Positions 28,139 to 49,190 of a DNA stretch of 55,658 nt are shown here, piece by piece. The position numbers were made by a program, and so were the translations under genes. The stretch lies in the IMG/VR virus record IMGVR_UViG_3300025687_000056, positions 1-55,658 of that record; one strand, given 5' to 3'. Positions within the stretch are counted from its first letter, which is position 1, and each line of letters begins with the position of its first letter. The notes beneath the pieces were generated by a model. It was not told the DNA's origin. It made no database searches and was given only the letters and a program-made list of their open reading frames with translations. This stretch comes from a virus (lineage: Duplodnaviria > Caudoviricetes).

Positions 28139-29977
28139 TTAAAAAGTATTAATTAATTTAATATATTTTTTTATTTTATCAGGATCATTATGTAAAGGAA
28201 TTAAAGACAAAATTAATGATTTAGTAATTATTTTTATTTTTTCAAAGTCTTCATTTACTTGATTTTTAAAAAAAGATAATAAATTGTCTTTATATGATTT
28301 TTTAATTTTTTTATCCATTAATATTTCATCATATCCTATTAATGATTGATATATTTTAGCATAATCATAAAGAGATAAACCATAACAAGTTTTTTTAGTT
28401 CCTACTATTCCTCTAACATCAACAAATTTTATATCCTCCACAGTAGTTAATAATATATTACTAAAAACACAATCTCCATGAATCATTACACTTTTATAAC
28501 CTTCATTTTCAATATAGGTTAATTGGTCTTTAATTTGTATAATATCATCTTCATTTACACCATATAGTTTATAATCATACATGGCTATTCTTTTAGAAAA
28601 TTTATCACTTAAATTAGGGTAACTATAATATATTTCATTGTTTTCTATATTATTATGTAATAATTTTATTTTATCAAATAAAAGTTGAAGATGATCAGTT
28701 GTGAGAATATTATTTACATACATTGTACTAAAATTAATACCTTCAATTGTTTCAAGTTCTAAACTATTATTAGTATAAGAAATTAATTTAGGAAACAATT
28801 TTTGAATTTCTTCAGTTCCATTATCTTGAACCCACTTATAATATTCTATTTCACCTTGAAGTTTAGGATCTAAAGATTTTTTTATAAATGTATTTCCTAT
28901 TTCAACTTCATTAAAATGTCTAGCAGAAACATCTTCCATATAAAACCCTAATGTTTTATTTAAATCAGTTTTTGGATTTATCATCAAATCATCAACATAA
29001 TAATGAGCATAAGGTTTTCCAAAATATAACTCATCATATGGAATATTATATTTTTCTAATGTTTCAATTGTAATTTTTCCAATATCAGCTATTACTCCTC
29101 CAATATTACCACTATGGGTTCTCATTCTTCTAGCAGTATAAATAATAATAGTATGACCTTTTTCTTTTAATTTTTTTAAATAATTAATAGTGTCAAGTAT
29201 TGGTTCTACTGAAGTATAATCATCTTTAATTTTAGGGTATGTGACTAATGTATTATCTAAATCAAAACAAAATCTCTTCTTTGGAATATCATATGTTTTA
29301 GAAAACTGGATAATTTGTTGGGGGGTTCCAAGTACATGGAAATCTGTGACTTTAATAGGAATAAATTTTTCCCCTTTTTCAATCATTTTTTCTATAACTT
29401 GAGAAGTATATAATTCATGTTCATTTTTAAATCCAATTTCTAATATTTGTTTTTTTAATGTTTGAGAATCTTTAAAAACATAACAACCACTATTAGCATT
29501 ATTTGAAATTTTAATTTTCTCTTTTATATTAATAATTGAGTTATCTTTTATTTGAATATAAGAATAAATAGGGTTTGGATTTTTAGATTCAAAATAAAGA
29601 ACAGAGTTTTCTTCTACTGTTTTAATTTTTTCAAGTATATTTTCTTCATACCAAGTATCCCCATCTAAAACAATAACTTTACCTTCAATTTTAAAACAAT
29701 CTAACCCCATTAATACAGTTTCAGAAGCTCCTCTAGTATTAGGAATAGGAGCTAATTGGATATTAGGATATTTTGAATTTATAATTTCACTAAAATTATA
29801 ATATTCTAGATACTCATTATACGGAATAAAAATTTTATCATCTTTAGTTATTTTTAAAGAGTCTAAAAGCCAAAAAATAATTTCTTTACCTAAAACTTTA
29901 ATTAAAGGTTTAGGCATATGGTATCCATATTCAGAAAATCTTTTTCCTACACCACCTAAAGGAATTAATATATTCAT
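28139..29977 (-). CDS. tri-domain sugar-nucleotide enzyme: nucleotidyltransferase + HAD phosphatase + APH/choline-kinase-like kinase
   Basis: N-terminal IPLGGVGKRF...PKPL..V.GK and LGTP; middle FCFDLDNTL...YTAR...FGKP...YVDD; C-terminal HGDCVFSNIL...FVD..G...YDYAK. Confidence 0.85.
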   Translation of the reverse strand: MNILIPLGGVGKRFSEYGYHMPKPLIKVLGKEIIFWLLDSLKITKDDKIFIPYNEYLEYYNFSEIINSKYPNIQLAPIPNTRGASETVLMGLDCFKIEGKVIVLDGDTWYEENILEKIKTVEENSVLYFESKNPNPIYSYIQIKDNSIINIKEKIKISNNANSGCYVFKDSQTLKKQILEIGFKNEHELYTSQVIEKMIEKGEKFIPIKVTDFHVLGTPQQIIQFSKTYDIPKKRFCFDLDNTLVTYPKIKDDYTSVEPILDTINYLKKLKEKGHTIIIYTARRMRTHSGNIGGVIADIGKITIETLEKYNIPYDELYFGKPYAHYYVDDLMINPKTDLNKTLGFYMEDVSARHFNEVEIGNTFIKKSLDPKLQGEIEYYKWVQDNGTEEIQKLFPKLISYTNNSLELETIEGINFSTMYVNNILTTDHLQLLFDKIKLLHNNIENNEIYYSYPNLSDKFSKRIAMYDYKLYGVNEDDIIQIKDQLTYIENEGYKSVMIHGDCVFSNILLTTVEDIKFVDVRGIVGTKKTCYGLSLYDYAKIYQSLIGYDEILMDKKIKKSYKDNLLSFFKNQVNEDFEKIKIITKSLILSLIPLHNDPDKIKKYIKLINTF

Positions 29978-31056: not shown

Positions 31057-31066
31057 GGTTTTTTAT

Positions 31067-31738: not shown

Positions 31739-34017
31739 AATTTTAATTTATTAAATACTTGTAAGGGTGTTATTGATTTTTGACATATATGTTGATATTC
31801 AGTTCCTTTATAGACGGGGCACCAGTCCCAATCACCAGCATCAAAAATATGTACTGGATCATTCCAACATTTTATACATAAATCATTTGTTATTTTAGTT
31901 AAATTAGAAGTAAATTCATGCCCTTCTTTAACAAAACCATTAATCATATAAGTATGATTTCCTAATGCCCAATTGATCCAAGATAATCCTGAACCTAGTC
32001 CTATAAAGGCTTCGGCGTAATGTAAATAAGTAGCTACCTCATCCCATGATTTACCATACAGATTTAAACCATAAGATATTTTATATTCAGTTCCTGTTAT
32101 AACAACTATATCATAACCAATTTGTTTTAACATTTTAGCTAATGATTTCCAATTATTATAAGTCCATTCTTTACATCCTGAAGTTGCTTGTGGTCCAAAA
32201 ACTATATATTTTTTCTTTTTTGGTCTTAATCCTATATTAAAATTAATTCCATAGTTTAATTCTTTAAATTCTAAACCTAAAATATCTGTAGCTGTTTGTT
32301 GTAAAGGAATTAAATTTACTTGGTTAGGATACATTTCAAATTTATTCCATTTACCAGAATCTCCTTTAAACCATCCTATTTGATATTTAACATCACATTT
32401 TGTAGACTGGCCAGGTTCTAAAAATTCAATATCTTTATATGGTTCTAATTCTTTAAACCAATTATTATGGAATGTACTTAAAATAACTTTACAATTATGT
32501 TTTTTAGCAAAATCAACAGCATATGGTGCCCATGCTATTGTATCACCTATTGATTTTGAGTCTAAAGCTATTAATACCCGTTTATTATCTAAAGTAAATT
32601 CATCTATTATATCTCCATTAACTTTAATTTTCCATTTAGTATAATACACTCTAGAACATTTAGTCCACATATTATTTGTAATAGTATCTTTATGAACAAT
32701 ATTATTATTTTCATCTAAAAATTCAATATAATATTCCTGATCATTTTCTCCTGTGATTTCTACTTTAGGACCTTCTAAATAACTAATGTTTATTTTATTA
32801 TTTTGAGGGATATGGGGATGTTTTTTATGAAATTCTAATAATGTGTTATAACCTATTTTTCCTATATTTTCCCAACTAAAATTACGTCTAATTTCTTCTG
32901 ATTCTTTTAATGCTCTTTTTTTACATTCATCATGTTTTATATAAGAATACATCATCATTAATTGTAAATGATTAAAATCAGGTTCATAATAGTTACCTGG
33001 AAGATCACTCATTTTATATCTAGCATATGAGTTTATATCAGCTGGTTTTTCTCCTAAAATATTTACTGGTATTCCTTTATTTTGGGCAAATTCAAGTTGG
33101 CCTGAACAATTGGAGTAAATTGAAGGTGTTCCACAAGCCATTGCTTCAATTAAAGGTAAATTCCAACCTTCAGAACGGGAACAAGATAAAAATACATTAC
33201 ATGATTTTAATATTTTAATATAATCTTCTCTTGAAGGAAAATGAACTATTTTAATACGTGGATCTATTAAATTATAATGAGCTAGTCTTTCTTCTGTTGT
33301 TTCAAACCCATCAATTTCTTTACCAAAAACATTATCTATAGAAACAATTAAATCAACAGGTTCATTATTTGTAAATGTATTTAAAAATGTTTCAATAATT
33401 TCTTTAGTTGATTTTCTATAATCCCATCTACCTGCTAAAAAGAATTTAAATCTACCATCTGATGTTAGTTCATGGGTTGTTTCTTCAGGGTAGAAAATAT
33501 TAGTATCTACACCTTCAGGAACTACTTTAATTTTATCAGAATCATATCCTTGTTTTATTGTTACTTCTTTTTGCCATTTTGACGGAACCCATAATTCATC
33601 AAATTCTTTTAATTTTTCAAAATATTCTTCAGGTTGTAAAGTAGATTCCCAAACATTATAAGCTATTTTAGGACCAACATAACTATCATAAAAATAATGG
33701 TGATTAGTTTCACTTAATACTAAATTAATATCCGGTCTAAAATTTTTAGAGTCTGATGGGTACATTAATATATCAGTTCGATGTGGTTTTTGAGTCCATA
33801 AAGTTTGTTGATACAACATACTTTTATCAATATCAGTTAAATAACTCTCACCATTATGGGGAGTGTCAGACATACCCTCCCAAGAATTTCCTATAGAAAA
33901 ATTTCTAATTTTTAGTTGTAAATATTTATTTAATTCTCTAAAAAAATCTCTTGTATGGTGGTTATAACCTGTATTTCCTATATAAGAACAATGAGCGTAT
34001 ATTTTTAATTTATCCAT
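31735..34017 (-). CDS. GT4 glycosyltransferase fused to an AAH/TibC-like (autotransporter heptosyltransferase-type) protein O-glycosyltransferase
   Basis: N half: TGY, WVPS, GVD, RKS, SRSEGWNLPLIEAMACG (GT4 EX7E). C half: RVLI...SKSIGDTIAW, PLQQTATDILGL, FIGLGSGLSW..WA, and CIKCWND...WCP...ICQKSIT iron finger. Confidence 0.85.
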   Translation of the reverse strand: MDKLKIYAHCSYIGNTGYNHHTRDFFRELNKYLQLKIRNFSIGNSWEGMSDTPHNGESYLTDIDKSMLYQQTLWTQKPHRTDILMYPSDSKNFRPDINLVLSETNHHYFYDSYVGPKIAYNVWESTLQPEEYFEKLKEFDELWVPSKWQKEVTIKQGYDSDKIKVVPEGVDTNIFYPEETTHELTSDGRFKFFLAGRWDYRKSTKEIIETFLNTFTNNEPVDLIVSIDNVFGKEIDGFETTEERLAHYNLIDPRIKIVHFPSREDYIKILKSCNVFLSCSRSEGWNLPLIEAMACGTPSIYSNCSGQLEFAQNKGIPVNILGEKPADINSYARYKMSDLPGNYYEPDFNHLQLMMMYSYIKHDECKKRALKESEEIRRNFSWENIGKIGYNTLLEFHKKHPHIPQNNKINISYLEGPKVEITGENDQEYYIEFLDENNNIVHKDTITNNMWTKCSRVYYTKWKIKVNGDIIDEFTLDNKRVLIALDSKSIGDTIAWAPYAVDFAKKHNCKVILSTFHNNWFKELEPYKDIEFLEPGQSTKCDVKYQIGWFKGDSGKWNKFEMYPNQVNLIPLQQTATDILGLEFKELNYGINFNIGLRPKKKKYIVFGPQATSGCKEWTYNNWKSLAKMLKQIGYDIVVITGTEYKISYGLNLYGKSWDEVATYLHYAEAFIGLGSGLSWINWALGNHTYMINGFVKEGHEFTSNLTKITNDLCIKCWNDPVHIFDAGDWDWCPVYKGTEYQHICQKSITPLQVFNKLKL

Positions 34018-34558
34018 TTATAAATTTATCAATAAAACTTTCTATATTATTTGACCACATTATCATAGCATTATCTTTAATTTTTTGTTCATCCCAGTTC
34101 CACCAAGAAATTAATAATAATTTTTTAATTTGTTCTTCTGTAAATCTATATTTTACAATCTTGCCTGGGTTTCCTGCTATAATAGCATATGGGGGAACAT
34201 CTTTAGTTACTGTTGATCCAGCTGCTATAATGGAACCATTTGAAATTTTAACACCTGACATTATAGTTGATTTAGCACCAATCCAAACATCATTTTCAAT
34301 TATAATGTTTCCTTTACAAGTTGGATGTCCCATATCCATATGCATTTGAGCAATTTCAGGAGTAACAGGTCCCCATAATTGAGAAGATGTAGTTATCCAA
34401 TCAGATCTATGGTTAGCATGAAGAAAAAAGTTACAATCTCTTCCAATTGAATTATATTTACCTAAAATTATTTTATAATCATCACTCCATGATATAATAT
34501 TAACATTACGATCAAAGTACGTACCTATATCTGATATCCATAAATGTATATTTTCCAT
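34010..34558 (-). CDS. hexapeptide-repeat (LbH) O-acetyltransferase, CatB/Vat-like
   Basis: IGKY-like N part, IENDVWIG, IAAGSTVTKDVPPYAIIAGNPG..VKYRF, WWNW. Confidence 0.88.
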   Translation of the reverse strand: MENIHLWISDIGTYFDRNVNIISWSDDYKIILGKYNSIGRDCNFFLHANHRSDWITTSSQLWGPVTPEIAQMHMDMGHPTCKGNIIIENDVWIGAKSTIMSGVKISNGSIIAAGSTVTKDVPPYAIIAGNPGKIVKYRFTEEQIKKLLLISWWNWDEQKIKDNAMIMWSNNIESFIDKFING

Positions 34559-34564
34559 AATATT

Positions 34565-35353
34565 TTATGTTTTATGAAGTTTAAATTCATCATCATAAGA
34601 AATCCAATAAGTATAATTATTAGATATTAAGGATAAAATAGATCTAAATAAATATTTTTCATTCCAATCAAAAAAGATCCACACATCTTGAGGGGACTCA
34701 GTTAAAGCAAAATCAACAATATATTCATTTCTGACATCATATATATCATATCCTAAATTTACAATTTCATGAGTAAAATCAATTTGAACTTGTTCAATAT
34801 CTTTATAATTATTACTTAAAACATGAGGTAATGAACCTAACTTATTATAAACTTCATTTAATACTTTAGTTGAAGATATTCCGGTGGTGTGTCCTAAATG
34901 TTTTTTGTTATTACACCAACCATTAGCTTCTCTAACAACCATTCCAAAATAACCACAATTTGGAGAAGTTAAAAATTTATTTTTAAGATATATGTCCCAA
35001 TTATCCTCAACAAAAAAATAATCATCTTCATTAAAAATAAAATAATCATATTTACTTCTATGTTTTTCAAATAATTCTGAAAAGGCAGCAAAACTCATTC
35101 CTATATTATTTCTAAAATTTATCTCAATTTCAGTACCGTTAATAAATTTAGGTACTATTTTAAAGATTTCAGAGACATATTCATAATCTTCTTCTCTAAT
35201 ATTAAAAGTAAAAATAACTTTTGATAAAGAATTTTTTATTTTATATAAATATTCTATTTGTTTTTTAAGCAAAAAAAGTTTATCATTAGTATATTCAGGA
35301 AGTTGTTTACGTCTTTCACCTAAATAAAAGTTAATAATATAACAGGTTTTCAT
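34565..35353 (-). CDS. putative GT-A fold glycosyltransferase
   Basis: RNNIGMSF...YDYFIFNEDDY motif; first gene of the glycan operon. Confidence 0.6.
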   Translation of the reverse strand: MKTCYIINFYLGERRKQLPEYTNDKLFLLKKQIEYLYKIKNSLSKVIFTFNIREEDYEYVSEIFKIVPKFINGTEIEINFRNNIGMSFAAFSELFEKHRSKYDYFIFNEDDYFFVEDNWDIYLKNKFLTSPNCGYFGMVVREANGWCNNKKHLGHTTGISSTKVLNEVYNKLGSLPHVLSNNYKDIEQVQIDFTHEIVNLGYDIYDVRNEYIVDFALTESPQDVWIFFDWNEKYLFRSILSLISNNYTYWISYDDEFKLHKT

Positions 35354-35381
35354 TTTTAAAAATATAGGATTTATAACTATT

Positions 35382-35413: not shown

Positions 35414-35415
35414 TT

Positions 35416-35613
35416 TTATTGTGGGATTCCTACTTTATCTTGAAAATACTGTTGTAAGAAAGTTTGAGTGTAAAAATAATATCTTGGATTAACTCCACTT
35501 AATCTATATCGAGAACCTACTTCTTTACATTTATTTAAAATAGTTTCCTCTAAAGTAGATGAAGGTGTATAACCTAAAAATTGTCTTGTTGATATAAAAG
35601 TTTCAGTCGGCAT
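35416..35613 (-). CDS. small hypothetical protein
   Basis: 65-aa ORF tightly packed after the putative adhesin. Confidence 0.6.
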   Translation of the reverse strand: MPTETFISTRQFLGYTPSSTLEETILNKCKEVGSRYRLSGVNPRYYFYTQTFLQQYFQDKVGIPQ

Positions 35614-35614
35614 A

Positions 35615-36292: not shown

Positions 36293-36294
36293 TG

Positions 36295-36639
36295 TTATGT
36301 AGTTATATTAGTAATAGTAAAAGTAGTTCCAGGTGATAAAGCTTCTAATTGATTTACTACTTCTGATGTTACCCAATATAAATACTTATCTGTTACATTT
36401 GTTCCAAAAGTATCAATAGGAGAAGATCCTGTTATATAAAAACCTATACTAGTTATATGTCTATCAGCTCCACCCATAGTAGGGATAGAACTAGTTACAA
36501 ATGTCATATAATCCTTATACATTCTAGTTTCAACAGGAATTTCATCTCCTGTAGAAGCTAAATAAGGAGTTATTCTAAAATAAGGAGCATCATAACTAGC
36601 GTTATTGTAAGTAAAAGTACCTGTGGCTTGTATTCCCAT
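36295..36639 (-). CDS. fibre-associated hypothetical protein
   Basis: 114-aa T/S-rich ORF starting 2 nt after the giant fibre stop. Confidence 0.65.
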
Positions 36640-39600: not shown

Positions 39601-42600
39601 ACACCACTTATACCTGAGGTACCACTGCTTCCTGATGAGCCAGAAGTACCTGATGAGCCACTAGAACCTGAAGTTCCAGAGCTTCCGCTTGTTCCTGATG
39701 AACCGCTAGTTCCTGATGATCCTGAGCTACCTGATGTACCACTTGATCCTGAAGAGCCTGATGTACCTGATGAACCAGAAGTTCCAGATGTTCCCGATGA
39801 ACCTGAACTACCAGATGTTCCAGAAGAACCTGAAGAACCTGATGTTCCACTTGAGCCTGATGTTCCTGAAGAGCCTGATGTTCCAGATGAACCACTTGAT
39901 CCAGAAGTTCCGCTTGAACCAGATGAACCAGAAGTACCTGATGAGCCACTTGTTCCTGATGAACCTGAAGTGCCACTTGAACCGCTTGTTCCAGATGAGC
40001 CAGATGATCCTGAAGTACCTGAAGAACCTGAGCTTCCTGATGTTCCTGAAGAACCACTAGTACCTGATGAACCAGAAGTACCTGATGAACCACTTGAACC
40101 ACTTGTTCCACTTGAACCACTTGAACCTGATGTTCCTGAACTGCCGCTAGTTCCACTTGAACCTGATGTTCCTGAAGAACCTGAAGTACCACTACTTCCG
40201 GATGAACCAGAAGTACCTGAACTACCTGATGAACCTGAAGTACCAGATGAGCCTGATGTACCTGAAGAACCACTTGTTCCACTCGAACCAGATGATCCTG
40301 AAGTTCCTGAAAAACCACTTGAGCCTGATGTTCCTGAAGAACCTGAAGTGCCGCTTGAACCAGAAGTTCCGCTTGAACCACTTGTTCCATTAACACCTGA
40401 TATACCTGAGGTACCAGAGCTACCACTTGAACCACTTGTACCTGATGAACCACTTGAGCCTGATGTTCCAGAGCTTCCACTTGTGCCTGAAGAACCACTT
40501 GTTCCTGATGAACCACTAGTTCCTGATGATCCTGAACTACCGCTAGTTCCGCTTGAACCTGAAGAACCTGAGGTGCCAGACGAGCCTGAACTACCTGATG
40601 TACCAGAAGAACCGCTTGTTCCTGATGAGCCTGATGTTCCAGATGAACCACTTGAACCGCTTGTTCCAGATGAGCCAGATGATCCTGAAGTACCTGAGCT
40701 GCCTGAAGTACCAGATGAACCACTTGTTCCACTTGAACCGCTTGTTCCACTTGAACCACTAGAGCCGCTTGTACCTGATGAACCGCTTGAACCTGATGTT
40801 CCACTAGAACCTGAAGTACCAGATGAGCCTGAAGTACCACTACTTCCTGATGAACCAGAAGTGCCTGAGCTACCTGAAGAACCTGATGTTCCAGATGAAC
40901 CTGAAGTTCCACTTGAACCGCTTGTGCCGCTTGAACCAGATGATCCTGAAGTTCCTGAAGAACCACTTGATCCACTTGTTCCGCTTGAACCTGATGTACC
41001 ACTAGAACCTGATGTTCCGTTTACACCACTTATACCTGAAGTACCACTTGATCCACTTGAACCACTAGTACCTGATGAACCTGATGAGCCAGAAGTTCCT
41101 GAAGAACCTGAAGTTCCTGATGAGCCACTTGTCCCAGAGCTTCCGCTAGTTCCAGAAGAACCAGAAGAACCGCTTGTTCCACTTGAACCAGAAGATCCAG
41201 AAGTTCCGCTTGAACCACTTGTTCCGCTTGAACCAGATGTTCCTGATGAACCGCTTGAGCCTGATGTTCCACTTGAGCCTGAACTACCTGATGTACCAGA
41301 AGAACCACTTGAACCTGAAGTACCAGAACTACCTGATGTTCCACTTGAACCTGAACTTCCGCTTGTTCCGGAAGAGCCTGAGCTACCTGAAGTACCTGAG
41401 CTACCTGAGGTTCCAGATGAACCGCTTGTACCACTTGAACCTGAGCTACCTGAAGTACCACTACTTCCTGATGAACCAGAAGTACCTGATGAGCCACTTG
41501 TTCCTGATGAACCTGAAGTGCCACTTGAACCACTAGTTCCACTTGAACCGCTTGAACCTGATGTACCACTAGAACCTGAAGAACCGGATGTTCCGCTAGA
41601 TCCTGATGTTCCAGAACTACCGCTAGTTCCTGAAGAACCGCTAGTTCCATTTACACCGCTTATACCTGATGTTCCTGATGAACCTGAGCTTCCGCTTGTT
41701 CCAGAAGAACCTGAACTACCTGAAGTTCCTGAAGAACCTGAAGTGCCACTTGAACCGGATGTTCCTGATGAGCCACTTGAACCTGATGTTCCACTTGAAC
41801 CTGATGAACCTGAAGTACCTGATGAGCCACTTGTTCCTGATGAGCCTGATGAACCGGATGTTCCTGAGCTACCTGAAGAGCCACTTGTACCAGAAGAGCC
41901 TGATGTTCCACTTGAACCAGATGATCCAGAAGTTCCACTTGAACCACTTGAACCTGAAGTACCAGATGAACCACTAGTACCTGATGAACCAGAAGTTCCT
42001 GATGAGCCACTACTACCTGAAGTACCAGATGAGCCACTACTTCCTGATGTTCCTGAACTACCACTTGTTCCTGATGAACCACTAGTACCTGAACTACCGC
42101 TTGTTCCTGAAGAGCCACTTGAACCACTAGTTCCTGATGAACCGGAACTACCTGAGGTACCTGATGAGCCACTTGTTCCGCTTGAACCTGATGTTCCTGA
42201 TGAACCAGATGAACCAGATGTTCCTGAGCTTCCTGAAGAGCCGCTTGTACCTGATGATCCTGAAGTTCCGCTTGAACCACTAGTTCCATTTACACCACTT
42301 ATACCTGATGTACCAGATGATCCTGAAGAACCGCTAGTACCTGATGAACCTGAAGAACCTGATGTTCCTGATGAGCCAGATGTTCCTGATGAGCCAGATG
42401 TTCCTGAGCTACCTGATGTACCTGAACTGCCTGATGAACCGCTAGTACCACTTGATCCTGAAGAACCGGATGTTCCAGATGAGCCAGAAGTACCTGATGA
42501 GCCAGATGTTCCAGATGAACCACTAGAACCTGATGTTCCTGAAGAACCAGAGCTACCTGATGTTCCTGAAGAACCTGAACTACCGCTAGTTCCTGAAGAA

Positions 42601-45600
42601 CCGCTAGTTCCAGATGAACCTGATGAACCAGATGTTCCGCTACTTCCAGAAGAACCAGAAGTACCACTTGAACCTGAAGTTCCTGAGCTTCCTGAAGTTC
42701 CAGATGAACCGGATGAACCACTAGTTCCGCTTGAACCTGATGAACCAGATGTTCCACTAGAACCTGATGTTCCAGATGAACCACTTGTTCCGCTTGAACC
42801 ACTAGTTCCAGATGAACCACTTGATCCTGAAGTTCCTGATGAACCGCTTGAACCACTAGTTCCGCTTGAACCTGATGTACCACTAGAACCTGAAGTTCCT
42901 GAAGAACCACTTGTTCCATTAACACCACTTATACCTGAAGTACCGCTACTACCACTTGAGCCGCTTGTACCTGATGAGCCTGATGAACCACTTGTTCCTG
43001 AAGAACCACTTGAACCACTTGTGCCTGATGAACCAGAGGTTCCGCTTGAACCTGAAGTACCAGAACTACCTGAAGTACCACTTGAACCTGAGCTACCACT
43101 AGTTCCTGATGAACCAGAGCTGCCTGAAGTTCCTGAACTACCTGAAGTACCTGATGAACCACTTGTACCTGAGCTTCCTGAACTACCTGAAGTACCACTA
43201 CTTCCTGATGAACCTGAAGTACCAGATGAACCACTTGTACCACTTGAGCCTGAAGTTCCTGATGAACCAGATGAACCGCTAGTACCAGATGAACCGGATG
43301 AACCACTAGTTCCGCTTGAACCTGAAGTTCCGCTTGAACCACTAGTACCTGAACTACCTGAAGTGCCAGATGAACCAGATGAACCTGATGTTCCGCTTGA
43401 GCCTGAGCTGCCTGATGTTCCGCTTGAACCTGAAGTACCTGAAGAACCACTTGTTCCTGAGCTGCCTGAACTACCTGAAGTTCCTGATGAGCCACTTGAA
43501 CCTGATGTACCTGAACTACCACTTGTTCCTGATGAACCACTAGTTCCATTCACACCACTTATACCTGAAGTACCTGAGCTGCCTGAAGAGCCGCTTGTAC
43601 CTGATGAACCACTAGAACCTGATGTTCCAGAGCTTCCACTTGTTCCTGATGAGCCTGAGGTTCCGCTTGAACCACTTGTTCCTGAAGAACCACTTGAACC
43701 ACTTGTACCTGATGAACCACTTGATCCAGATGTTCCTGATGAACCTGAAGTGCCAGAACTACCTGATGTTCCGCTTGAACCTGATGAGCCACTTGTTCCT
43801 GAAGAACCGCTAGAGCCACTTGTTCCACTAGAACCTGATGTTCCAGAGCTTCCGCTTGTTCCTGATGAACCTGAGCTGCCTGATGTTCCAGATGAGCCTG
43901 AGCTGCCTGATGTTCCTGATGATCCAGATGTTCCACTAGATCCAGATGTTCCAGATGAACCTGATGAACCTGAAGTTCCTGAGGATCCAGATGAACCTGA
44001 TGTACCACTAGATCCGCTTGTTCCGCTTGATCCTGAAGTTCCTGATGAACCAGATGTTCCTGATGAACCGGATGAGCCTGAAGTACCTGATGAACCTGAA
44101 CTACCACTAGTTCCTGATGAACCTGAAGTACCTGAACTACCACTAGTTCCTGAAGAGCCTGATGTACCATTTACACCAGATATACCTGAAGTACCTGATG
44201 AGCCTGAAGAGCCGCTTGTACCTGATGAGCCTGATGAGCCTGAAGTTCCTGAACTACCACTTGTTCCAGATGAACCAGAGGTTCCAGATGAACCAGATGA
44301 GCCTGATGTTCCAGATGAACCTGAGCTTCCTGAAGTACCAGATGAACCAGATGAACCTGAGGTTCCAGATGATCCACTAGTACCACTAGAACCTGAAGTT
44401 CCTGATGAGCCACTTGAACCACTTGTACCTGATGAACCACTTGATCCTGATGTTCCTGAAGAACCAGATGTTCCTGAAGAACCGCTTGTTCCGCTTGAAC
44501 CTGAAGTACCACTTGAACCTGATGAGCCTGATGTTCCACTTGAACCTGATGAGCCTGATGTTCCACTAGATCCACTAGTTCCACTGGACCCGCTAGTTCC
44601 GCTAGAACCTGAAGAGCCACTTGTACCTGATGAACCTGAGCTACCTGATGTACCACTTGATCCTGAAGTGCCTGATGAACCACTAGTTCCGCTTGATCCG
44701 CTAGAACCTGAAGTACCTGAGGAGCCTGATGAGCCTGATGTACCAGATGAACCGCTTGTACCACTTGAACCAGAAGTTCCACTTGAACCACTTGTTCCAT
44801 TAACACCGCTTATACCTGAAGTACCACTTGAACCAGATGATCCACTAGTACCAGATGAGCCGGATGTACCTGAACTTCCGCTTGTACCGCTTGATCCTGA
44901 AGAACCTGATGTTCCACTTGAACCTGAAGAACCAGAAGTACCTGAACTTCCAGAAGTTCCACTTGAACCAGAAGTTCCGCTTGATCCTGATGAACCTGAT
45001 GTACCTGATGAGCCTGAGCTGCCTGAGGTACCACTAGAACCAGATGTTCCTGAAGAACCTGAAGTTCCAGAAGAACCGCTTGTTCCGCTTGATCCAGATG
45101 AACCGCTTGTTCCGCTTGATCCTGAAGAGCCACTTGTGCCTGAGCTACCTGATGTACCAGAAGAACCTGATGTTCCTGATGAACCGCTTGAGCCACTAGT
45201 TCCTGATGAACCAGAGCTTCCTGATGTACCTGATGAACCTGAAGTTCCAGAAGAACCGCTTGTTCCATTTACACCACTTATACCTGATGTACCTGATGAT
45301 CCTGATGAACCACTAGTACCTGATGAGCCTGATGAACCTGAAGTACCACTAGAACCAGATGTTCCAGATGAACCTGAAGTACCTGAAGAACCTGAAGAAC
45401 CAGATGTTCCTGATGAACCGCTTGATCCAGATGTTCCTGAAGAACCTGAAGTTCCAGAAGAACCGCTTGTTCCGCTTGAACCACTAGATCCTGAAGTACC
45501 ACTTGATCCTGAAGAACCGCTTGTGCCTGAAGAACCTGAAGTTCCAGATGAGCCTGATGTTCCTGAAGAACCTGAAGTTCCGCTTGATCCGCTTGATCCA

Positions 45601-48600
45601 GATGTTCCTGAAGAACCTGATGAACCAGATGTTCCTGAAGAACCTGATGAACCACTTGTTCCTGATTCTCCTGAACTACCTGAACTACCTGAGGTGCCTG
45701 ATGAACCAGAGGTTCCACTAGAACCACTAGTACCATTTACACCACTTATACCTGATGTACCACTGCTTCCTGATGAGCCAGAAGTACCTGATGAACCACT
45801 TGATCCGCTTGTTCCGCTTGATCCTGAAGTTCCGCTTGAGCCACTTGTACCTGAAGAGCCAGAGGTTCCACTAGAACCACTTGATCCAGAAGTTCCAGAA
45901 GAACCTGATGAACCTGAAGTACCAGATGAACCGCTTGTTCCACTTGAACCTGAAGTTCCGCTTGAGCCTGAGCTACCACTAGTTCCTGATGATCCTGATG
46001 AACCACTTGTTCCGCTTGAGCCACTTGATCCAGATGTTCCTGAAGAGCCACTTGTACCTGATGATCCAGATGTTCCACTGCTTCCTGATGAGCCTGATGT
46101 TCCTGAAGAACCTGAACTACCTGAAGTTCCTGATGAACCACTAGTCCCTGATTCTCCTGAACTTCCACTGGAGCCTGAAGTACCAGATGAACCACTTGTT
46201 CCATTAACACCACTTATACCTGAGCTTCCGCTTGTTCCTGATGAACCAGATGAACCACTTGTTCCTGATGAACCGCTTGAACCTGAAGTTCCGCTTGAGC
46301 CACTTGTACCTGATGAGCCTGAACTACCTGAGGTGCCTGAAGAACCACTTGAGCCTGATGTACCTGATGAACCTGAAGTACCGGATGAACCGCTTGTTCC
46401 GCTTGAACCAGATGAGCCACTTGTTCCTGATGAACCTGAGCTACCAGATGTTCCTGATGAACCGCTTGTTCCGCTTGAACCTGAAGTTCCAGAAGAGCCA
46501 CTTGTTCCACTTGAACCTGAGCTACCTGAAGTGCCTGATGAACCGCTTGAGCCAGATGTTCCTGAAGAACCACTTGTACCTGATGAACCTGAGCTACCAG
46601 ATGTTCCTGAAGAACCACTTGAACCGCTAGTTCCTGATGAACCGCTTGTTCCGCTTGAGCCAGATGTACCATTTACACCTGATATACCTGAAGTACCAGA
46701 GCTGCCTGAAGAGCCGCTTGTACCTGATGAGCCTGATGAGCCTGAAGTTCCTGAGCTTCCACTGGAACCTGAAGTGCCAGATGAGCCGCTTGAGCCTGAT
46801 GTACCGCTTGAACCAGATGTTCCTGAAGAGCCGCTTGAGCCAGATGTTCCTGATGAACCACTTGAGCCAGATGTTCCACTTGATCCTGAAGAACCAGAAG
46901 TACCTGATTCTCCTGAACTTCCGCTTGAACCACTAGTTCCTGATGAACCAGAACTACCTGAGGTACCAGATGAACCTGAAGTACCATTAACACCTGATAT
47001 GCCTGAGGTACCTGAACTGCCGCTTGAGCCTGATGTACCACTTGAGCCTGAAGAACCAGAAGTGCCTGATTCTCCTGATGAACCACTTGAGCCAGAGGTT
47101 CCTGATGAACCACTTGAGCCTGATGTACCACTAGAACCTGATGTTCCATTTACACCACTTATACCTGAAGTACCTGAGCTGCCTGAAGAGCCACTTGTAC
47201 CTGATGAGCCTGAAGTTCCTGATGAACCTGATGTACCACTAGATCCGCTTGAACCTGATGTACCGCTTGAACCTGATGAGCCTGATGTTCCTGATGAACC
47301 ACTAGTGCCACTAGAACCTGAAGTACCAGAGGATCCTGAAGAACCTGAAGTGCCTGATGAACCTGATGAGCCTGAAGTGCCAGAAGAACCGCTTGTTCCG
47401 CTTGAGCCTGAACTTCCTGATGTGCCACTTGAACCGGAACTGCCTGATGTTCCTGATGAACCACTTGTTCCGCTTGAGCCTGATGTACCACTTGAACCGG
47501 AACTACCTGAGGTTCCTGATGAACCGCTTGAGCCTGAAGTTCCACTAGAACCAGAAGTTCCAGATGAACCACTAGTTCCTGATGAACCAGATGAACCAGA
47601 AGTACCAGATGAGCCTGAACTACCTGATGTTCCTGATGAACCAGAAGTACCAGATGAACCAGAAGTTCCATCTATACCACTAGTTCCAGAACTACCTGAG
47701 CTTCCGCTTGTTCCTGATGAACCGCTTGAACCTGAAGTACCAGAACTACCTGAAGTGCCTGATGAACCTGAAGTGCCAGAACTACCTGAACTTCCGCTAG
47801 TTCCTGAAGAACCTGATGAACCGCTAGTACCAGAACTACCTGATGTTCCGTCTATACCTGAAGTACCAGATGAGCCTGAACTACCTGAAGTTCCAGATGA
47901 GCCGCTTGAGCCACTTGTTCCTGAACTTCCACTTGTACCAGAACTACCTGATGTTCCTGATGAGCCTGATGTTCCACTTGAACCACTTGAGCCTGATGTA
48001 CCACTTGATCCTGATGAGCCAGAAGTACCATCTATACCTGAAGTGCCAGACGATCCTGATGAACCACTAGTACCTGATGAACCTGATGAACCACTTGTTC
48101 CGCTTGAACCTGAGCTTCCGCTTGTTCCTGATGAGCCACTTGAACCAGATGTTCCTGAAGAACCGCTTGTTCCGCTTGAGCCTGAACTGCCTGAAGTACC
48201 AGATGAACCTGATGAACCACTTGTTCCGCTTGAACCAGAGGTTCCTGAAGAGCCACTTGTTCCACTAGAGCCTGAGCTTCCGCTTGTTCCTGATGAACCG
48301 CTTGAACCTGAAGTTCCTGATGAGCCTGATGTACCAGATGAGCCTGATGTACCACTTGAGCCTGATGAGCCAGAGGTACCATCTATACCTGAAGTACCAG
48401 AAGAACCACTTGAACCTGAGGTACCTGATGAACCTGAACTTCCGCTAGTTCCTGAACTACCTGAAGTGCCAGATGAGCCACTAGTTCCGCTTGATCCTGA
48501 AGAACCAGATGTACCTGAAGATCCTGATGAACCTGAAGTTCCAGATGAACCACTAGTTCCACTTGAACCAGAGGTACCACTTGAGCCTGAACTTCCACTT

Positions 48601-49190
48601 GAACCAGATGAGCCTGAGGTTCCTGATGAGCCTGAGGTTCCTGATGAACCTGAGGTTCCACTAGAGCCAGAACTACCTGAAGTTCCGCTAGAGCCGGAAC
48701 TACCTGAAGTTCCACTAGAGCCAGAACTACCTGAAGTTCCTGATGAACCACTAGTTCCACTTGAGCCTGATGAGCCAGATGTTCCTGAACTACCTGAAGT
48801 TCCTGATGTTCCAGATGAAGGCATATCAGAATATTCTACTTCTCCAGTAGCAGGTATATAAGTTACAACATATGAAGGACTAGCTTCATATGGTAAAGTT
48901 TGAATTATAATAGGTTGGGAAGAACCAGAGATTACTAATGAGCCGGTAATTACTGCTGAACCAGAAAATGGGAAACCTATACCTGAACCTGATATAAAGA
49001 CTGTTACTCCTTCTGTTGAAGAAATAATATCTGTATAAGCATCAACTGAGCCTGTAAAATTAATAAAAGGAGCACTAGATTTAACTAGTGACCCAGTATA
49101 ATATATATCAATAGTACCATTACCACTTCCTGCTGTATCCGCTTGGAAAACCCCTACTGGTACCTGATCAAGGAATCTAACTTTAGCCAT
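36642..49190 (-). CDS. giant Gly-X-Ser repeat fibre protein (4182 aa) with C-terminal peptidase S74 intramolecular chaperone
   Basis: About 126-aa N-terminal domain; Gly-X-Y repeat at aa 127-3871; beta-rich tip (TINGEANLTFDG, VGIGTAAP); SDIRKK...GVIAQE...YLSVAY...LIEGIKE plus coiled coil (36642-36935). Class II motif at 49202-49209. Confidence 0.9.
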   Translation of the reverse strand: MAKVRFLDQVPVGVFQADTAGSGNGTIDIYYTGSLVKSSAPFINFTGSVDAYTDIISSTEGVTVFISGSGIGFPFSGSAVITGSLVISGSSQPIIIQTLPYEASPSYVVTYIPATGEVEYSDMPSSGTSGTSGSSGTSGSSGSSGTSGSSGTSGSSGSSGTSGSSGSSGTSGSSGSSGTSGSSGTSGSSGTSGSSGSSGSSGSSGTSGSSGTSGSSGTSGSSGSSGTSGSSGSSGTSGSSGTSGSSGTSGSSGSSGTSGSSGSSGTSGIDGTSGSSGSSGTSGSSGTSGSSGTSGSSGSSGTSGSSGSSGTSGSSGTSGSSGTSGSSGSSGTSGSSGSSGTSGSSGTSGSSGSSGTSGSSGSSGTSGSSGSSGTSGSSGSSGTSGIDGTSGSSGSSGTSGSSGSSGTSGSSGTSGSSGTSGSSGTSGSSGSSGTSGSSGSSGTSGIDGTSGSSGTSGSSGSSGTSGSSGSSGTSGSSGTSGSSGTSGSSGSSGTSGSSGSSGTSGIDGTSGSSGTSGSSGTSGSSGSSGTSGSSGSSGTSGSSGTSGSSGTSGSSGSSGTSGSSGSSGTSGSSGTSGSSGTSGSSGSSGTSGSSGSSGTSGSSGTSGSSGSSGTSGSSGSSGTSGSSGTSGSSGTSGSSGSSGTSGSSGSSGTSGSSGTSGSSGTSGSSGSSGTSGISGVNGTSGSSGTSGSSGSSGTSGSSGSSGESGTSGSSGSSGTSGSSGSSGTSGISGVNGTSGSSGTSGSSGSSGTSGSSGSSGESGTSGSSGSSGTSGSSGSSGTSGSSGSSGTSGSSGTSGSSGSSGTSGSSGSSGTSGSSGSSGTSGSSGSSGTSGISGVNGTSGSSGTSGSSGTSGSSGSSGTSGSSGSSGTSGSSGTSGSSGSSGTSGSSGSSGTSGSSGTSGSSGTSGSSGTSGSSGSSGTSGSSGSSGTSGSSGTSGSSGTSGSSGSSGTSGSSGSSGTSGSSGTSGSSGSSGTSGSSGSSGTSGSSGISGVNGTSGSSGTSGSSGSSGESGTSGSSGTSGSSGSSGTSGSSGSSGTSGSSGTSGSSGTSGSSGSSGTSGSSGSSGTSGSSGSSGTSGSSGTSGSSGTSGSSGSSGTSGSSGSSGTSGSSGTSGSSGTSGSSGTSGSSGSSGTSGSSGSSGTSGISGVNGTSGSSGTSGSSGTSGSSGSSGESGTSGSSGSSGTSGSSGSSGTSGSSGSSGTSGSSGTSGSSGTSGSSGTSGSSGSSGTSGSSGSSGTSGSSGTSGSSGTSGSSGSSGTSGSSGSSGTSGSSGTSGSSGTSGSSGSSGTSGSSGSSGTSGISGVNGTSGSSGTSGSSGTSGSSGSSGTSGSSGSSGTSGSSGTSGSSGTSGSSGSSGTSGSSGSSGTSGSSGTSGSSGTSGSSGTSGSSGSSGTSGSSGSSGTSGSSGTSGSSGTSGSSGSSGTSGSSGSSGTSGSSGTSGSSGTSGSSGSSGTSGISGVNGTSGSSGTSGSSGTSGSSGTSGSSGSSGTSGSSGSSGTSGSSGTSGSSGTSGSSGSSGTSGSSGSSGTSGSSGTSGSSGTSGSSGSSGTSGSSGSSGTSGSSGTSGSSGTSGSSGTSGSSGSSGTSGSSGSSGTSGSSGTSGSSGTSGSSGSSGTSGSSGSSGTSGSSGSSGTSGSSGTSGSSGTSGSSGSSGTSGSSGSSGTSGISGVNGTSGSSGTSGSSGTSGSSGTSGSSGSSGTSGSSGSSGTSGSSGTSGSSGTSGSSGTSGSSGSSGTSGSSGSSGTSGSSGTSGSSGTSGSSGSSGTSGSSGSSGTSGSSGTSGSSGTSGSSGSSGTSGSSGSSGTSGSSGTSGSSGTSGSSGSSGTSGSSGSSGTSGSSGTSGSSGTSGSSGTSGSSGSSGTSGSSGSSGTSGISGVNGTSGSSGTSGSSGTSGSSGSSGTSGSSGSSGTSGSSGTSGSSGTSGSSGSSGTSGSSGSSGTSGSSGTSGSSGTSGSSGTSGSSGSSGTSGSSGSSGTSGSSGTSGSSGTSGSSGSSGTSGSSGSSGTSGSSGTSGSSGTSGSSGSSGTSGSSGSSGTSGSSGTSGSSGTSGSSGTSGSSGSSGTSGSSGSSGTSGSSGSSGTSGISGVNGTSGSSGTSGSSGTSGSSGTSGSSGSSGTSGSSGSSGTSGSSGTSGSSGTSGSSGTSGSSGSSGTSGSSGSSGTSGSSGTSGSSGTSGSSGSSGTSGSSGSSGTSGSSGTSGSSGSSGTSGSSGSSGTSGSSGSSGTSGSSGTSGSSGTSGSSGSSGTSGSSGSSGTSGSSGTSGSSGTSGSSGTSGSSGSSGTSGSSGSSGTSGISGVNGTSGSSGTSGSSGTSGSSGSSGTSGSSGSSGTSGSSGTSGSSGTSGSSGSSGTSGSSGSSGTSGSSGTSGSSGTSGSSGTSGSSGSSGTSGSSGSSGTSGSSGTSGSSGTSGSSGSSGTSGSSGSSGTSGSSGTSGSSGSSGTSGSSGSSGTSGSSGTSGSSGSSGTSGSSGSSGTSGSSGTSGSSGTSGSSGSSGTSGSSGSSGTSGISGVNGTSGSSGTSGSSGTSGSSGTSGSSGSSGTSGSSGSSGTSGSSGTSGSSGTSGSSGTSGSSGSSGTSGSSGSSGTSGSSGTSGSSGTSGSSGSSGTSGSSGSSGTSGSSGTSGSSGSSGTSGSSGSSGTSGSSGSSGTSGSSGTSGSSGTSGSSGSSGTSGSSGSSGTSGSSGTSGSSGTSGSSGTSGSSGSSGTSGSSGSSGTSGISGVNGTSGSSGTSGSSGTSGSSGSSGTSGSSGSSGTSGSSGTSGSSGTSGSSGSSGTSGSSGSSGTSGSSGTSGSSGTSGSSGSSGTSGSSGSSGTSGSSGTSGSSGTSGSSGTSGSSGSSGTSGSSGSSGTSGSSGTSGSSGTSGSSGSSGTSGSSGSSGTSGSSGSSGTSGSSGTSGSSGTSGSSGTSGSSGSSGTSGSSGSSGTSGISGVNGTSGSSGTSGSSGTSGSSGTSGSSGFSGTSGSSGSSGTSGSSGTSGSSGTSGSSGSSGTSGSSGSSGTSGSSGTSGSSGTSGSSGTSGSSGSSGTSGSSGSSGTSGSSGTSGSSGTSGSSGSSGTSGSSGSSGTSGSSGTSGSSGTSGSSGTSGSSGSSGTSGSSGSSGTSGSSGTSGSSGTSGSSGSSGTSGSSGSSGTSGTSGSSGTSGSSGSSGTSGSSGSSGTSGSSGTSGSSGTSGSSGSSGTSGSSGSSGTSGISGVNGTSGSSGTSGSSGTSGSSGTSGSSGSSGTSGSSGSSGTSGSSGTSGSSGTSGSSGSSGTSGSSGSSGTSGATGAAGTSGTSGSSGTSGSSGTSGSSGSSGTSGSSGSSGTSGSSGTSGSSGSSGTSGSSGSSGTSGSSGTSGSSGTSGSSGSSGTSGSSGSSGTSGNSGTSGSSGTSGSSGTSGSSGSSGTSGSSGSSGTSGSSGTSGSSGTSGSSGTSGSSGSSGTSGSSGSSGTSGATGAAGTSGTSGSSGTSGSSGTSGSSGTSGSSGSSGTSGSSGSSGTSGISGVNGTSGTSGATGAAGTSGTSGSSGTSGSSGTSGSSGSSGTSGSSGSSGTSGATGSPGTPGTSGTSGSSGTSGSSGTSGSSGSSGTSGSSGSSGTSGATGSPGTPGTSGTSGSSGTSGSSGTSGSSGSSGTSGSSGSSGTSGATGSPGASGTSGSSGTSGSSGTSGSSGSSGTSGSSGSSGTSGATGSPGASGTSGSSGTSGSSGTSGSSGTSGSSGSSGTSGSSGSSGTSGSSGASGASGTSGTSGTSGSSGTSGSSGSSGTSGSSGSSGTSGATGAAGAAGTSGTSGSSGTSGSSGTSGSSGSSGTSGSSGSSGTSGATGATGAAGTSGTSGSSGTSGSSGSSGTSGSSGSSGTSGAAGASGTSGSSGTSGSSGTSGSSGTSGAATISNNTNNYVLTATGTSTINGEANLTFDGSYLKVGSGASANATLSVKGSGTTSATKNFVVETGNGTSIMDFRDDTYAFFGCGQTGGSASGFIFPYSNTSYTQFAGYNYGAGSGAYKSILMDTDTVSRDKGVFVGYDVSTNTPPSSTEFAVRGTGTTSATYCAQFVDDSRTSILIVRNDKRVGIGTAAPSYPLHVALDVSGDSIYASGDIIASSDIRKKTEIQVIENAIEKIKEIRGVTFLKTDTDQTKRKMGVIAQEIEKVAPEAVSTDSEGYLSVAYGNLVGLLIEGIKEQQDQIDNLKQEIEKLKNK
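37578..48812 (-). repeat. 9-nt-period coding tandem repeat (~1248 Gly-X-Y triplets, mainly GSS/GTS)
   Basis: Gly at every third residue between aa 127 and 3871 (3744 residues apart, divisible by 3); no register break seen; synonymous codons vary widely. Confidence 0.95.

Follow-up and report, generated by a model that had tools for sequence, protein, structure and literature searches.

Our analysis of a 55,658-nucleotide stretch of viral DNA (Duplodnaviria; Caudoviricetes; IMG/VR record IMGVR_UViG_3300025687_000056, taken whole and hereafter called the window) points to an accessory virion-fibre cassette of an aquatic myovirus, equipped with its own O-glycosylation enzymes, as the best explanation for the genes at positions 28139–49190. 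These comprise a gene for a giant collagen-like fibre, three small genes and an island of six enzyme genes, one of which encodes a family 4 glycosyltransferase (GT4) fused to a relative of TibC and AAH, enzymes of the BAHT family of cytoplasmic protein O-glycosyltransferases (PMC4358343). O-glycosylation of the fibre by these phage-encoded enzymes best accounts for the sequence evidence, with a probability that we put at roughly 0.55. Judged from the gene content of related phages, the fibre and the BAHT-like gene are shown to be inherited together.

The collagen-like fibre and the enzyme island

The fibre gene encodes 4182 amino acids (aa), and from residue 127 to residue 3873 each of 1249 consecutive triplets begins with glycine (1249/1249). 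GSS accounts for 682 triplets and GTS for 496; the X position is serine in 686 and threonine in 498, and the Y position is serine in 1205. With 1942 Ser and 553 Thr, the whole S74-ended protein holds 2495 Ser/Thr residues, which bears out the giant Gly-X-Y fibre with more than 2000 Ser/Thr that had been described in an earlier reading of this DNA (hereafter the original prediction). The 3747-residue repeat contains 6 Pro and 8 charged residues, and the stabilising imino acids or charge pairs expected at the X and Y positions of a collagen were not found in it; since the repeat is almost without proline or charge, the proposed glycans would be what gives the fibre its stability or stiffness. 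On an end fragment of the fibre the Pfam Collagen model (PF01391) scores 27.2 bits, a value equal to its cut-off. The motif GISGVNG punctuates the repeat 16 times, at a spacing of mainly 156 and then about 210 residues. The C-terminal 309 residues comprise a non-repeat domain and a Peptidase_S74 domain (PF13884, E 9.8e-15, 55 bits against a cut-off of 22), and the C-terminus matches 35 PHROG families, among the listed matches mostly tail-fibre families. If a triple helix forms, at 0.286 nm per residue, the fibre would perhaps be about 1.07 µm long. A BLASTP search with the N-terminal domain against the open reading frames (ORFs) of the fetched loci and of two complete related genomes (G002 and G003, described below) found no homologue.

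We regard it as very improbable that the fibre, or its length, stems from faulty assembly or from a repeat expansion without function. The repeats share only 65–80% of their DNA sequence and the longest exact repeat in the coding sequence measures 62 bp, so that collapse or inflation of a perfect repeat does not account for the gene. Among seven 207-codon units (4347 codon pairs), 1594 pairs were identical, 2305 differed synonymously and 448 differed in amino acid; this excess of synonymous change indicates strong selection on the protein sequence. The triplet periodicity is strictly maintained despite saturated synonymous divergence, and no frame break interrupts the 12.5 kb gene. Both gene ends were confirmed by Logan contigs in three other runs, and comparable Gly-X-Y fibres of 2645 aa and 1589 aa or more exist in relatives. 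What speaks for an artefact is that no Logan contig spans the gene, its exact length thus resting on a single assembly, that the summed short-contig depth over the repeat (37288–48718) reached 20–100 times that of the flanks in four metagenome runs, and that a joint skipping 5895 bp within the gene (40035–45931) appeared in three runs from different studies. This joint, one side of which matches 24 letters only, could be a shorter allele or a repeat artefact; numerous other joints, in X11, carry no information, nor do stretches that no contig bridges. The depth is raised because similar repeats from other organisms also align there, and GSS/GTS-coding repeats from other organisms must be abundant in the waters sampled by those four runs. 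The strand opposite the fibre gene holds a 3770-aa open frame (37549–48861, + strand) and the fibre strand's other frames many ORFs of 150–460 aa, which are shadows of the codon make-up of the repeat and not genes.

Past three small genes, the six enzyme genes follow on the same strand, overlapping or at most 10 bp apart, in the operon-like order originally described; all six enzyme assignments, including the AAH/TibC-like domain, were upheld, the second glycosyltransferase (360 aa) with weaker support (Table 1). The TibC-like domain matches PDB 4rap (E 1.2e-28) and, over positions 11–371 of 374, the profile TIGR04414 (194.1 bits, E 3.3e-57; cut-off 200). In TibC, Asp110 is the catalytic base, Thr226, Lys230, Arg286 and Trp305 bind the sugar, Cys339, Cys342, Cys358 and Cys370 form the iron finger, and a beta-hairpin thumb including Phe265 and Val266 is needed for the dodecamer (PMC4358343). 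We mapped these residues by counting along the alignment with 4rap and scored their conservation in 56 distinct phage homologues. The catalytic base corresponds to D492, three of the sugar-binding residues (Thr226, Lys230 and Trp305) to T612, K616 and W680, and the iron-finger cysteines to C714, C717, C733 and C745, every one of them kept in 56/56 homologues. On this residue pattern, the domain is a true relative of TibC whose active site and iron finger are predicted to be intact. In seven loci (L014, L016–L019, L021 and L041; for example L018:11047–11934), the fusion gene is directly followed by a second TibC-like paralogue, which is shorter. This protein of 294–304 aa (28–33% identical) is without the N-terminal beta-barrel; the catalytic Asp and the four Cys are retained, and an insertion occupies the position of the TibC thumb.

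The GT4 part of the fusion is recognised by PF00534 (E 1.2e-13, 51.3 bits against a cut-off of 26.4) and phrog_2170 (E 7e-32). The neighbouring FkbM-family methyltransferase matches PF05050 (Methyltransf_21; E 2.4e-13, 51 bits against 22.7) and TIGR01444 (58 bits against 37.7). For the 262-aa protein, an AlphaFold model built from 37 homologues (mean predicted confidence, pLDDT, 93.7) retrieved SpsA with Foldseek at E 1e-6, together with mannosylglycerate synthase and hyaluronan synthase within E 1e-6 to 1e-5; its structural neighbours in the Atlas are RgpF/GT2 proteins, and E109-D110-D111, an acidic DxD-type motif, is invariant in the 37 sequences. The 182-aa acetyltransferase resembles the Vat/CatB models of NCBIfam at E 1e-36, scoring 125 bits with Vat (cut-off 300) and 124 bits with CatB (cut-off 350), so far below both cut-offs that it can be assigned to the hexapeptide class only, with no resistance role implied. 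In the model of the 360-aa protein (pLDDT 92.2), the N-terminal domain resembles glycogenin (E 4.5e-5) and the capsid glycosyltransferase A64R of PBCV-1 (E 1.9e-4) at template-modelling (TM) scores of only 0.3–0.5. E131 and D133 are invariant, and the ESM Atlas contains viral multidomain proteins to parts of which this domain aligns and which bear Aah/TibC, GT1 or GT2 domains as well. Homologues of the 360-aa, 262-aa and 612-aa proteins often list identical longest-contig sizes (15947, 25304, 6794, 11240, 11687, 14748, 14311 and 8444), a hint that they lie on the same metagenome contigs.

The sixth enzyme, of 612 aa, combines three domains. The nucleotidyltransferase domain, used as a profile against PDB, matches 4evw (4.6e-13) and weakly HddC (6jq8, 4.8e-6). 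The HAD domain matches 1xpj (2e-20 with a profile) and TIGR01689 (78 bits, under the cut-off of 162), and residues D239, D241 and T243 of its motif I (DxDxT) are invariant. In the kinase domain, H500-G501-D502...N507 (Brenner motif HxDxxxxN) and D520 are invariant in 28 sequences; Pfam EcKL/APH matches are weak (E 0.38 on the window protein), protein-kinase cores appear at E 0.005–0.03 with a profile, and the homologues P0200, P0203 and P0206 carry PF01636 (APH). This trifunctional architecture is common (723 proteins at E ≤ 0.001). Within IMG/VR it is found on jumbo-phage contigs and in metagenome-assembled genomes (MAGs) of giant viruses, where the fusion is 34–43% identical on contigs L206, L221, L225 and L227.

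Distribution of the fibre and the TibC-like gene

The TibC-like domain is present in 182 IMG/VR contigs at 55–72% identity, 80 of which provide the locus counts below. Downstream neighbours of the gene are the tail sheath in 78/80 loci, the tube in 73/80 and the baseplate hub in 65/80. GT4 is fused to TibC in 67/80, and in the remaining 13 the ORF runs off the contig start. FkbM occurs in 19/80 loci and is fused between GT4 and TibC in L056, L058 and the Microcystis phage Mel-JY01. Only the GT4::TibC gene (80/80) and FkbM (19/80) are thus recurrent beside the sheath.

ORFs with Gly-X-Y repeats were found in 24/80 TibC loci, and their position is one-sided: where at least 8 kb of upstream sequence was available, 12/17 loci had one upstream, as against 1/37 downstream among loci with at least 8 kb on that side. 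A further 79 loci, fetched by the sheath protein, display two architectures. Either the sheath directly follows the head-completion, p173 and p312 genes, or a fibre, small genes, a TibC-like gene and a 251-aa protein are inserted before it. Among the 20 sheath loci with at least 8 kb upstream, four had both TibC and a Gly-X-Y ORF, one TibC only, two a Gly-X-Y ORF only and 13 neither (p 0.014); the single TibC-only locus lacks a fibre because its flank begins at the 225-aa gene, cutting the fibre off. After de-replication into groups, a Gly-X-Y ORF lay upstream in 7/12 TibC-bearing groups compared with 1/9 TibC-less sheath relatives (p 0.037), and anywhere in the locus in 9/12 compared with 1/9 (p 0.0058).

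Two complete genomes of uncultured relatives illustrate this difference. G002 (170,105 bp), which carries the TibC-like gene, has six Gly-X-Y ORFs. Its fibre of 2645 aa, with 331 GTS and 287 GSS triplets, stands directly after p312, the same slot as the window fibre, and is followed by two Pro-rich collagen fibres, GT4::TibC and the sheath. G003 (166,276 bp, with terminal repeats) is devoid of the TibC-like gene and has no Gly-X-Y ORF; at C1:152367–160388 it encodes instead a 2674-aa S74-ended fibre that has no Gly-X-Y repeat and that precedes a gene homologous to the 225-aa gene of the window. The co-occurrence of such fibres with AAH-like glycosyltransferases across phages, put forward as a check in the original prediction, is therefore positive in direction, both in the position of the Gly-X-Y ORFs and in the comparison of G002 with G003.

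Only four GenBank phage records carry the TibC-like domain. In the cultured phage Mel-JY01 (PP395634), a 1226-aa GT4-FkbM-TibC fusion is encoded 1.7 kb downstream of a 1016-aa Gly-X-Y frame and 23 kb from the sheath. This frame (2–3049, + strand, from the record's first base) contains 606 residues of GTS/GSS-type triplets and is unannotated, the record showing a pair of hypothetical proteins on the minus strand in its place. The gene for this fibre probably continues across the ends of the record. In a 735-kb megaphage, GT4::TibC lies 3.6 kb from a Gly-X-Y ORF. Mel-JY01 and the megaphages are more independent cases than the sheath-linked lineage.

Two pattern-limited scans of bacterial and archaeal genomes for this TibC-like branch, the first without a match and the second yielding 24 Pandoraea loci and two MAG contigs labelled archaeal, are uninformative on bacteria either way. 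None of the Pandoraea and MAG loci has a collagen-like fibre; in one Pandoraea locus, an opposite-strand ORF poor in Ser/Thr includes a single Gly-X-Y run of 30 aa.

Proposed glycosylation route, competing targets and known systems

If the enzymes do act on the fibre, the following route can be proposed. Late in infection, the trifunctional enzyme would convert a host sugar phosphate into a nucleoside diphosphate (NDP)-sugar, possibly NDP-heptose, by phosphorylating the anomeric position, taking off the distal phosphate and attaching the nucleotide. The BAHT-like domain would then add the first sugar to Ser/Thr hydroxyls of the unfolded fibre chains, the GT4 and GT-A enzymes would lengthen the glycan, and the FkbM and acetyltransferase proteins would cap it. 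Finally, the S74 domain would trimerise the C-terminus and the chains would zip up, the glycans supplying stability or stiffness to a fibre of up to about 1 µm that would serve host contact. A broader and more tentative picture, which we hold to be possible but clearly less probable than fibre glycosylation itself, is that aquatic phages build micrometre-long, proline-free glyco-collagen fibres in which glycans and not imino acids hold the triple helix, viral collagen-like fibres being the main substrates of this enzyme branch. In the same tentative picture, the phage TibC/AAH branch would densely O-glycosylate Gly-Ser/Thr-Ser repeats, and the fibres would be a common device for long-range host capture in natural waters.

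Several observations weigh against glycosylation of the fibre. Substrate, sugar and triple helix are all inferred from the genes. The known TibC substrates are beta-helical autotransporters and not collagen repeats (PMC4358343). The TIGR04414 score of the domain falls just below the cut-off, the position of the sugar-binding Arg286 is V661 (V in 42, S in 7, T in 4 and I in 3 of the 56 homologues), and TibC thumb residues from about 262 to 268 fall in an alignment gap. With Arg286 not kept and the thumb missing, a dodecamer and heptose specificity are doubtful; the domain is not classed as a TibC equivalog since its oligomeric state and donor sugar may differ from those of TibC. The search for a phosphoheptose isomerase (SIS_2) in genomes G000–G003 found none. 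The six-gene island is not conserved as a unit, the trifunctional enzyme and the 262-aa GT-A protein being present in 0/80 TibC loci and the acetyltransferase and the 360-aa protein in 1/80 each. Reciprocally, loci of the trifunctional enzyme have TibC within 10 kb in 2/46 cases, both from a single phage that carries five of the six island genes, and a Gly-X-Y ORF in 1/46; we therefore see in this enzyme a general viral sugar-activation module recruited by the phage. Of the glycosylation island originally proposed, only the GT4::TibC and FkbM genes recur beside the sheath; the enzyme put forward as the maker of the donor sugar has the domains assigned to it and turns out to be a general module with TibC rarely nearby.

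The distribution data have weaknesses too. To a large extent, the co-occurrence reflects gene order shared by members of a single phage lineage. De-replication at 95% sheath identity shrinks the four-way table to 2,1/1,8, which is not significant (about p 0.13), and 5/12 de-replicated TibC-bearing groups have no Gly-X-Y ORF in the upstream flank. The megaphage LR756504 has a lone TibC-like gene with no Gly-X-Y ORF within 20 kb, and L144 and L146 have a Gly-X-Y ORF with no TibC-like gene within the 10 kb fetched, being either a counter-example or a more distant arrangement. The ORF of L144/L146 (272–2407) encodes 712 aa, of which 360 residues are Gly-X-Y and 32% Ser/Thr, and lies upstream of a sheath relative. 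Many Gly-X-Y fibres near TibC are also Pro/Gln-rich and not Ser/Thr-rich. As a case against Ser/Thr targeting, such neighbouring Pro-rich fibres could be rejected for L049–L052 only: the flanks of these loci show only Pro-rich fibres because the GTS/GSS fibre lies just beyond them, as revealed by G002, the complete genome that includes L050, with its 2645-aa fibre.

The enzymes might instead glycosylate another virion protein, such as the sheath, the Ser/Thr-rich 251-aa protein or the non-repeat ends of the fibre, the fibre repeat being a mere neighbour in a variable slot. We consider this unlikely, although it is the foremost of the alternatives. It would agree with the position of GT4::TibC directly upstream of the sheath in 78/80 loci, with a 251-aa homologue in between in 14, with the existence of Ser/Thr-rich structural proteins (27360–28115, 28%; 51915–52337, 35%), with the natural TibC substrate being a folded beta-helix rather than a collagen repeat (PMC4358343), and with the Ser/Thr-poor composition of many adjacent Gly-X-Y fibres. 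However, the Mel-JY01 fusion adjoins a GTS/GSS ORF at 23 kb from the sheath, relatives identified by their sheath that have no fibre cassette lack TibC as well (13/20 loci with at least 8 kb upstream, and G003), and L050, one of the Pro-rich loci, belongs to a genome with a GTS/GSS fibre just past the flank.

The 612-aa enzyme bears on both the donor sugar and a possible DNA target. In MupP-AmgK-MurU cell-wall recycling, an HAD phosphatase, an APH-like anomeric kinase and a nucleotidyltransferase turn a distally phosphorylated sugar into an NDP-sugar; these are three separate bacterial proteins, specific for N-acetylmuramic acid. The window protein follows the same three-activity logic, its match to MurU being faint (E 0.0036). 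In E. coli, the transfer of heptose onto 5-hydroxymethylcytosine (5hmC) was reported to depend on each of three enzymes of a phage cluster, an HAD-APH enzyme, a cytidylyltransferase and a GT-B enzyme (10.1101/2023.12.21.572611). As that source describes the cluster, its sugar-activating activities are those of the 612-aa protein, and such a set can supply a heptose donor; the likeness is one of description only, and the target there is 5hmC in DNA, acted on by a T4 beta-glucosyltransferase-like enzyme. This precedent, together with the heptosyltransferase relatives of the TibC-like domain, makes an NDP-heptose donor plausible, whereas the weak HddC match, the loss of Arg286 and the absence of the isomerase from G000–G003 weigh against it; we give heptose roughly one chance in three.

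Hypermodification of the phage DNA with sugars by the glycosyltransferases and the sugar-activating enzyme, as in 5hmC glycosylation clusters, seems improbable to us. The heptosylation precedent speaks for it, such clusters being located also near structural genes (10.1101/2023.12.21.572611), and base-modification genes could lie elsewhere, as the window covers about 34% of the genome. Yet PHROG and Pfam scans found no 5-methylpyrimidine dioxygenase, cytosine methyltransferase or thymidylate-synthase-like gene in the window. In the cluster described, the GT-B enzyme resembles T4 beta-glucosyltransferase and other DNA glycosyltransferases have a GT-A fold (10.1101/2023.12.21.572611), while the GT-B domains of the window are GT4 and BAHT-like, with a conserved protein-binding iron finger.

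Likewise doubtful, if somewhat less so than a DNA target, is a role of the island as an auxiliary or host-takeover module that alters surface glycans or proteins of the host (lipopolysaccharide, capsule or adhesins), for example to block superinfection or remodel the cell surface, leaving the virion untouched. PHROGs indeed class the glycosyltransferase families as 'moron, auxiliary metabolic gene and host takeover', the best family of the HAD domain is a capsule-biosynthesis phosphatase (PDB 9iqw), unrelated viruses that have no fibre also carry the trifunctional enzyme, and the island is AT-richer than its flanks, like acquired DNA. The GC content of the six genes (28139–35353) is 22–29%, compared with 30–41% in neighbouring structural genes, which suggests a separate origin or different constraints. 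Such a role would fit poorly with the location of the island amid structural genes that share its strand, with its overlapping gene ends, with the cytoplasmic protein O-glycosyltransferase activity of BAHT enzymes (PMC4358343) and with the gain and loss of the TibC-like gene along with the fibre cassette.

Fibre glycosylation finds its closest parallel in the TibC-TibA and Aah-AIDA-I systems of E. coli (PDB 4RAP/4RB4). Homology of the catalytic domain extends over about 350 residues, the phage domain retains the catalytic Asp, 3/4 sugar-binding residues and the four iron-finger Cys, and in both cases the enzyme gene adjoins a gene for a long, repetitive, Ser-rich surface protein. By contrast, the phage enzyme is virus-encoded and fused to GT4, and the adjoining repeat protein is a collagen-like S74 fibre, without an autotransporter, in place of a beta-helical autotransporter. 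Among bacterial secreted proteins, the BclA collagen-like exosporium filaments of Bacillus anthracis and the serine-rich-repeat adhesins with GtfA/GtfB are Thr/Ser-rich fibres heavily O-glycosylated by dedicated enzymes; BclA differs in having Pro-rich repeats (GPT), GtfA belongs to GT4 and, to our knowledge, no BAHT enzyme is involved in either case. The NCBIfam GtfA model matched the island proteins faintly (E 0.0015). Virus-encoded glycosylation of structural proteins is exemplified by the Mimivirus fibrils and by PBCV-1, whose A64R (PDB 2p72) is resembled by the model of the 360-aa protein; both are eukaryotic viruses with other substrates, and this fold match is weak.

Phage virion O-glycosylation has been characterised in mycobacteriophages, where phage-encoded glycosyltransferases O-glycosylate the phage's own virion proteins, with glycans on the C-termini of capsid and tail-tube subunits (PMC12619734, citing Freeman et al. 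2023); the passage concerned mentions no BAHT-like enzyme or collagen-like fibre. Our literature search by title and abstract, with most subscription journals and supplementary files outside its range, found no paper that deals with a TibC-like enzyme of phages or with glycosylation of a collagen fibre in a phage. The original statement that no phage system of this architecture had been characterised hence holds for the architecture within the range of this search and has to be narrowed for virion O-glycosylation as such, given the other enzymes and targets of the mycobacteriophages. New relative to known systems is a BAHT-type enzyme in a phage, fused to GT4 and paired with a collagen-like fibre. 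If fibre glycosylation is correct, it would constitute a second and widespread phage route to virion glycosylation, with the enzyme in at least 182 IMG/VR contigs, and would give a viral use to an enzyme family whose known role has so far been confined to the maturation of bacterial adhesins. Its substrate would be a proline-free Ser/Thr collagen repeat, and it is otherwise hard to see how such a repeat folds. Such a route would be relevant to host finding by phages in dilute water, to the biophysics of collagen, where helices could be glycan-stabilised, and to tools that produce glycosylated collagen-like materials.

Genome context and neighbouring genes

The window, with a CheckV completeness of 34%, is roughly one third of an immuto-like myovirus genome. 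Its closest isolate by tail sheath is Flavobacterium phage immuto (48% identity), with an identical gene order from capsid to tape measure, and the capsid proteins of complete uncultured relatives (166–170 kb) are 62–64% identical to that of the window phage. GenBank phages searched at the nucleotide level with the structural region and with the island gave no match; near-identical island DNA was present in metagenomes from fresh water, estuaries, lagoons and the sea (20 public runs, 13 studies), with no RNA run listed among them. All 44 substantial ORFs (44/44) are on the minus strand. PHROG and Pfam scans identified a Gp23-type major capsid protein, PhoH, a head-completion protein, tail sheath, tube, baseplate hub and tape measure, as well as a replication block with a DnaB-like helicase, RecA/UvsX-like proteins, a gp32-like single-stranded DNA-binding protein, a class II ribonucleotide reductase and a pyrimidine-dimer glycosylase. 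The cassette is inserted in the late structural block, with head-completion genes on one side and the sheath on the other. Promoter and terminator scans of 27000–37000 remained at chance level (68 vs 74.3 and 3 vs 2.7, respectively).

Table 1. Coordinates of the fibre, island and adjoining features in the window
Feature	Position	Strand	Basis
Giant fibre gene, 4182 aa	36642..49190	-	ORF; PHROG tail-fibre families on C-terminal 352 aa
Fibre N-terminal non-repeat domain, residues 1-126, presumed virion attachment	48813..49190	-	Sequence composition
Collagen-like region, 1249 uninterrupted G-X-Y triplets	37572..48812	-	Residue count; Pfam Collagen on end fragments
Fibre distal non-repeat domain, residues 3874-4085	36936..37571	-	PHROG tail-fibre profiles
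Peptidase_S74 intramolecular chaperone domain, residues 4086-4139, then C-terminal helical tail	36774..36935	-	PF13884
Small gene, 114 aa, 26% Ser/Thr, no family	36295..36639	-	Homologue after fibre in locus L018
Small gene, 225 aa, poly-Pro run, no family	35615..36292	-	Accompanies S74 fibres, including non-collagen fibre of G003
Small gene, 65 aa, no family	35416..35613	-	Co-occurs with 225-aa gene in relatives
GT-A fold glycosyltransferase, 262 aa, no Pfam match	34565..35353	-	AlphaFold 2 model, Foldseek, conserved motif
Hexapeptide-repeat acetyltransferase, 182 aa, Vat/CatB-like class	34010..34558	-	PF00132 E 1.3e-8
GT4::TibC-like fusion gene, 760 aa	31735..34017	-	Two domains by Pfam, PDB and NCBIfam
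GT4 (GT-B) domain of 760-aa fusion, residues about 99-387	32857..33723	-	PF00534, phrog_2170
TibC/AAH-like (BAHT-like) domain of 760-aa fusion, residues 408-758	31744..32796	-	PDB 4rap; TIGR04414
FkbM-family methyltransferase, 223 aa	31067..31738	-	PF05050
360-aa protein, GT-A-like N-terminal domain and C-terminal beta-sandwich	29974..31056	-	Model and Foldseek, weaker support
NTP_transferase, HAD and APH-like kinase protein, 612 aa	28139..29977	-	Three domains
Sugar-1-phosphate nucleotidyltransferase domain, residues 1-233 of 612-aa protein	29279..29977	-	PF00483 E 6.4e-12
HAD phosphatase domain, residues 234-343 of 612-aa protein	28949..29278	-	PDB 1xpj E 1.2e-16
APH/protein-kinase-like small-molecule kinase domain, residues 345-612	28142..28945	-	Conserved motif, weak Pfam
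251-aa protein, 28% Ser/Thr, between island and sheath; alternative substrate candidate	27360..28115	-	Homologue in 14/80 loci
Tail sheath; conserved downstream neighbour of GT4::TibC gene	25466..27250	-	phrog_23 E 1.2e-74

The 225-aa and 65-aa genes are part of the fibre module, as their homologues follow S74 fibres in relatives, including the TibC-less G003. Within the replication block, a 448-aa protein (3911–5257) carries an EF-hand calcium-binding motif (PF13202, E 1e-7). The pyrimidine-dimer DNA glycosylase (233–715; PF03013, E 1.3e-16) is an ultraviolet-repair gene that fits a phage of surface waters.

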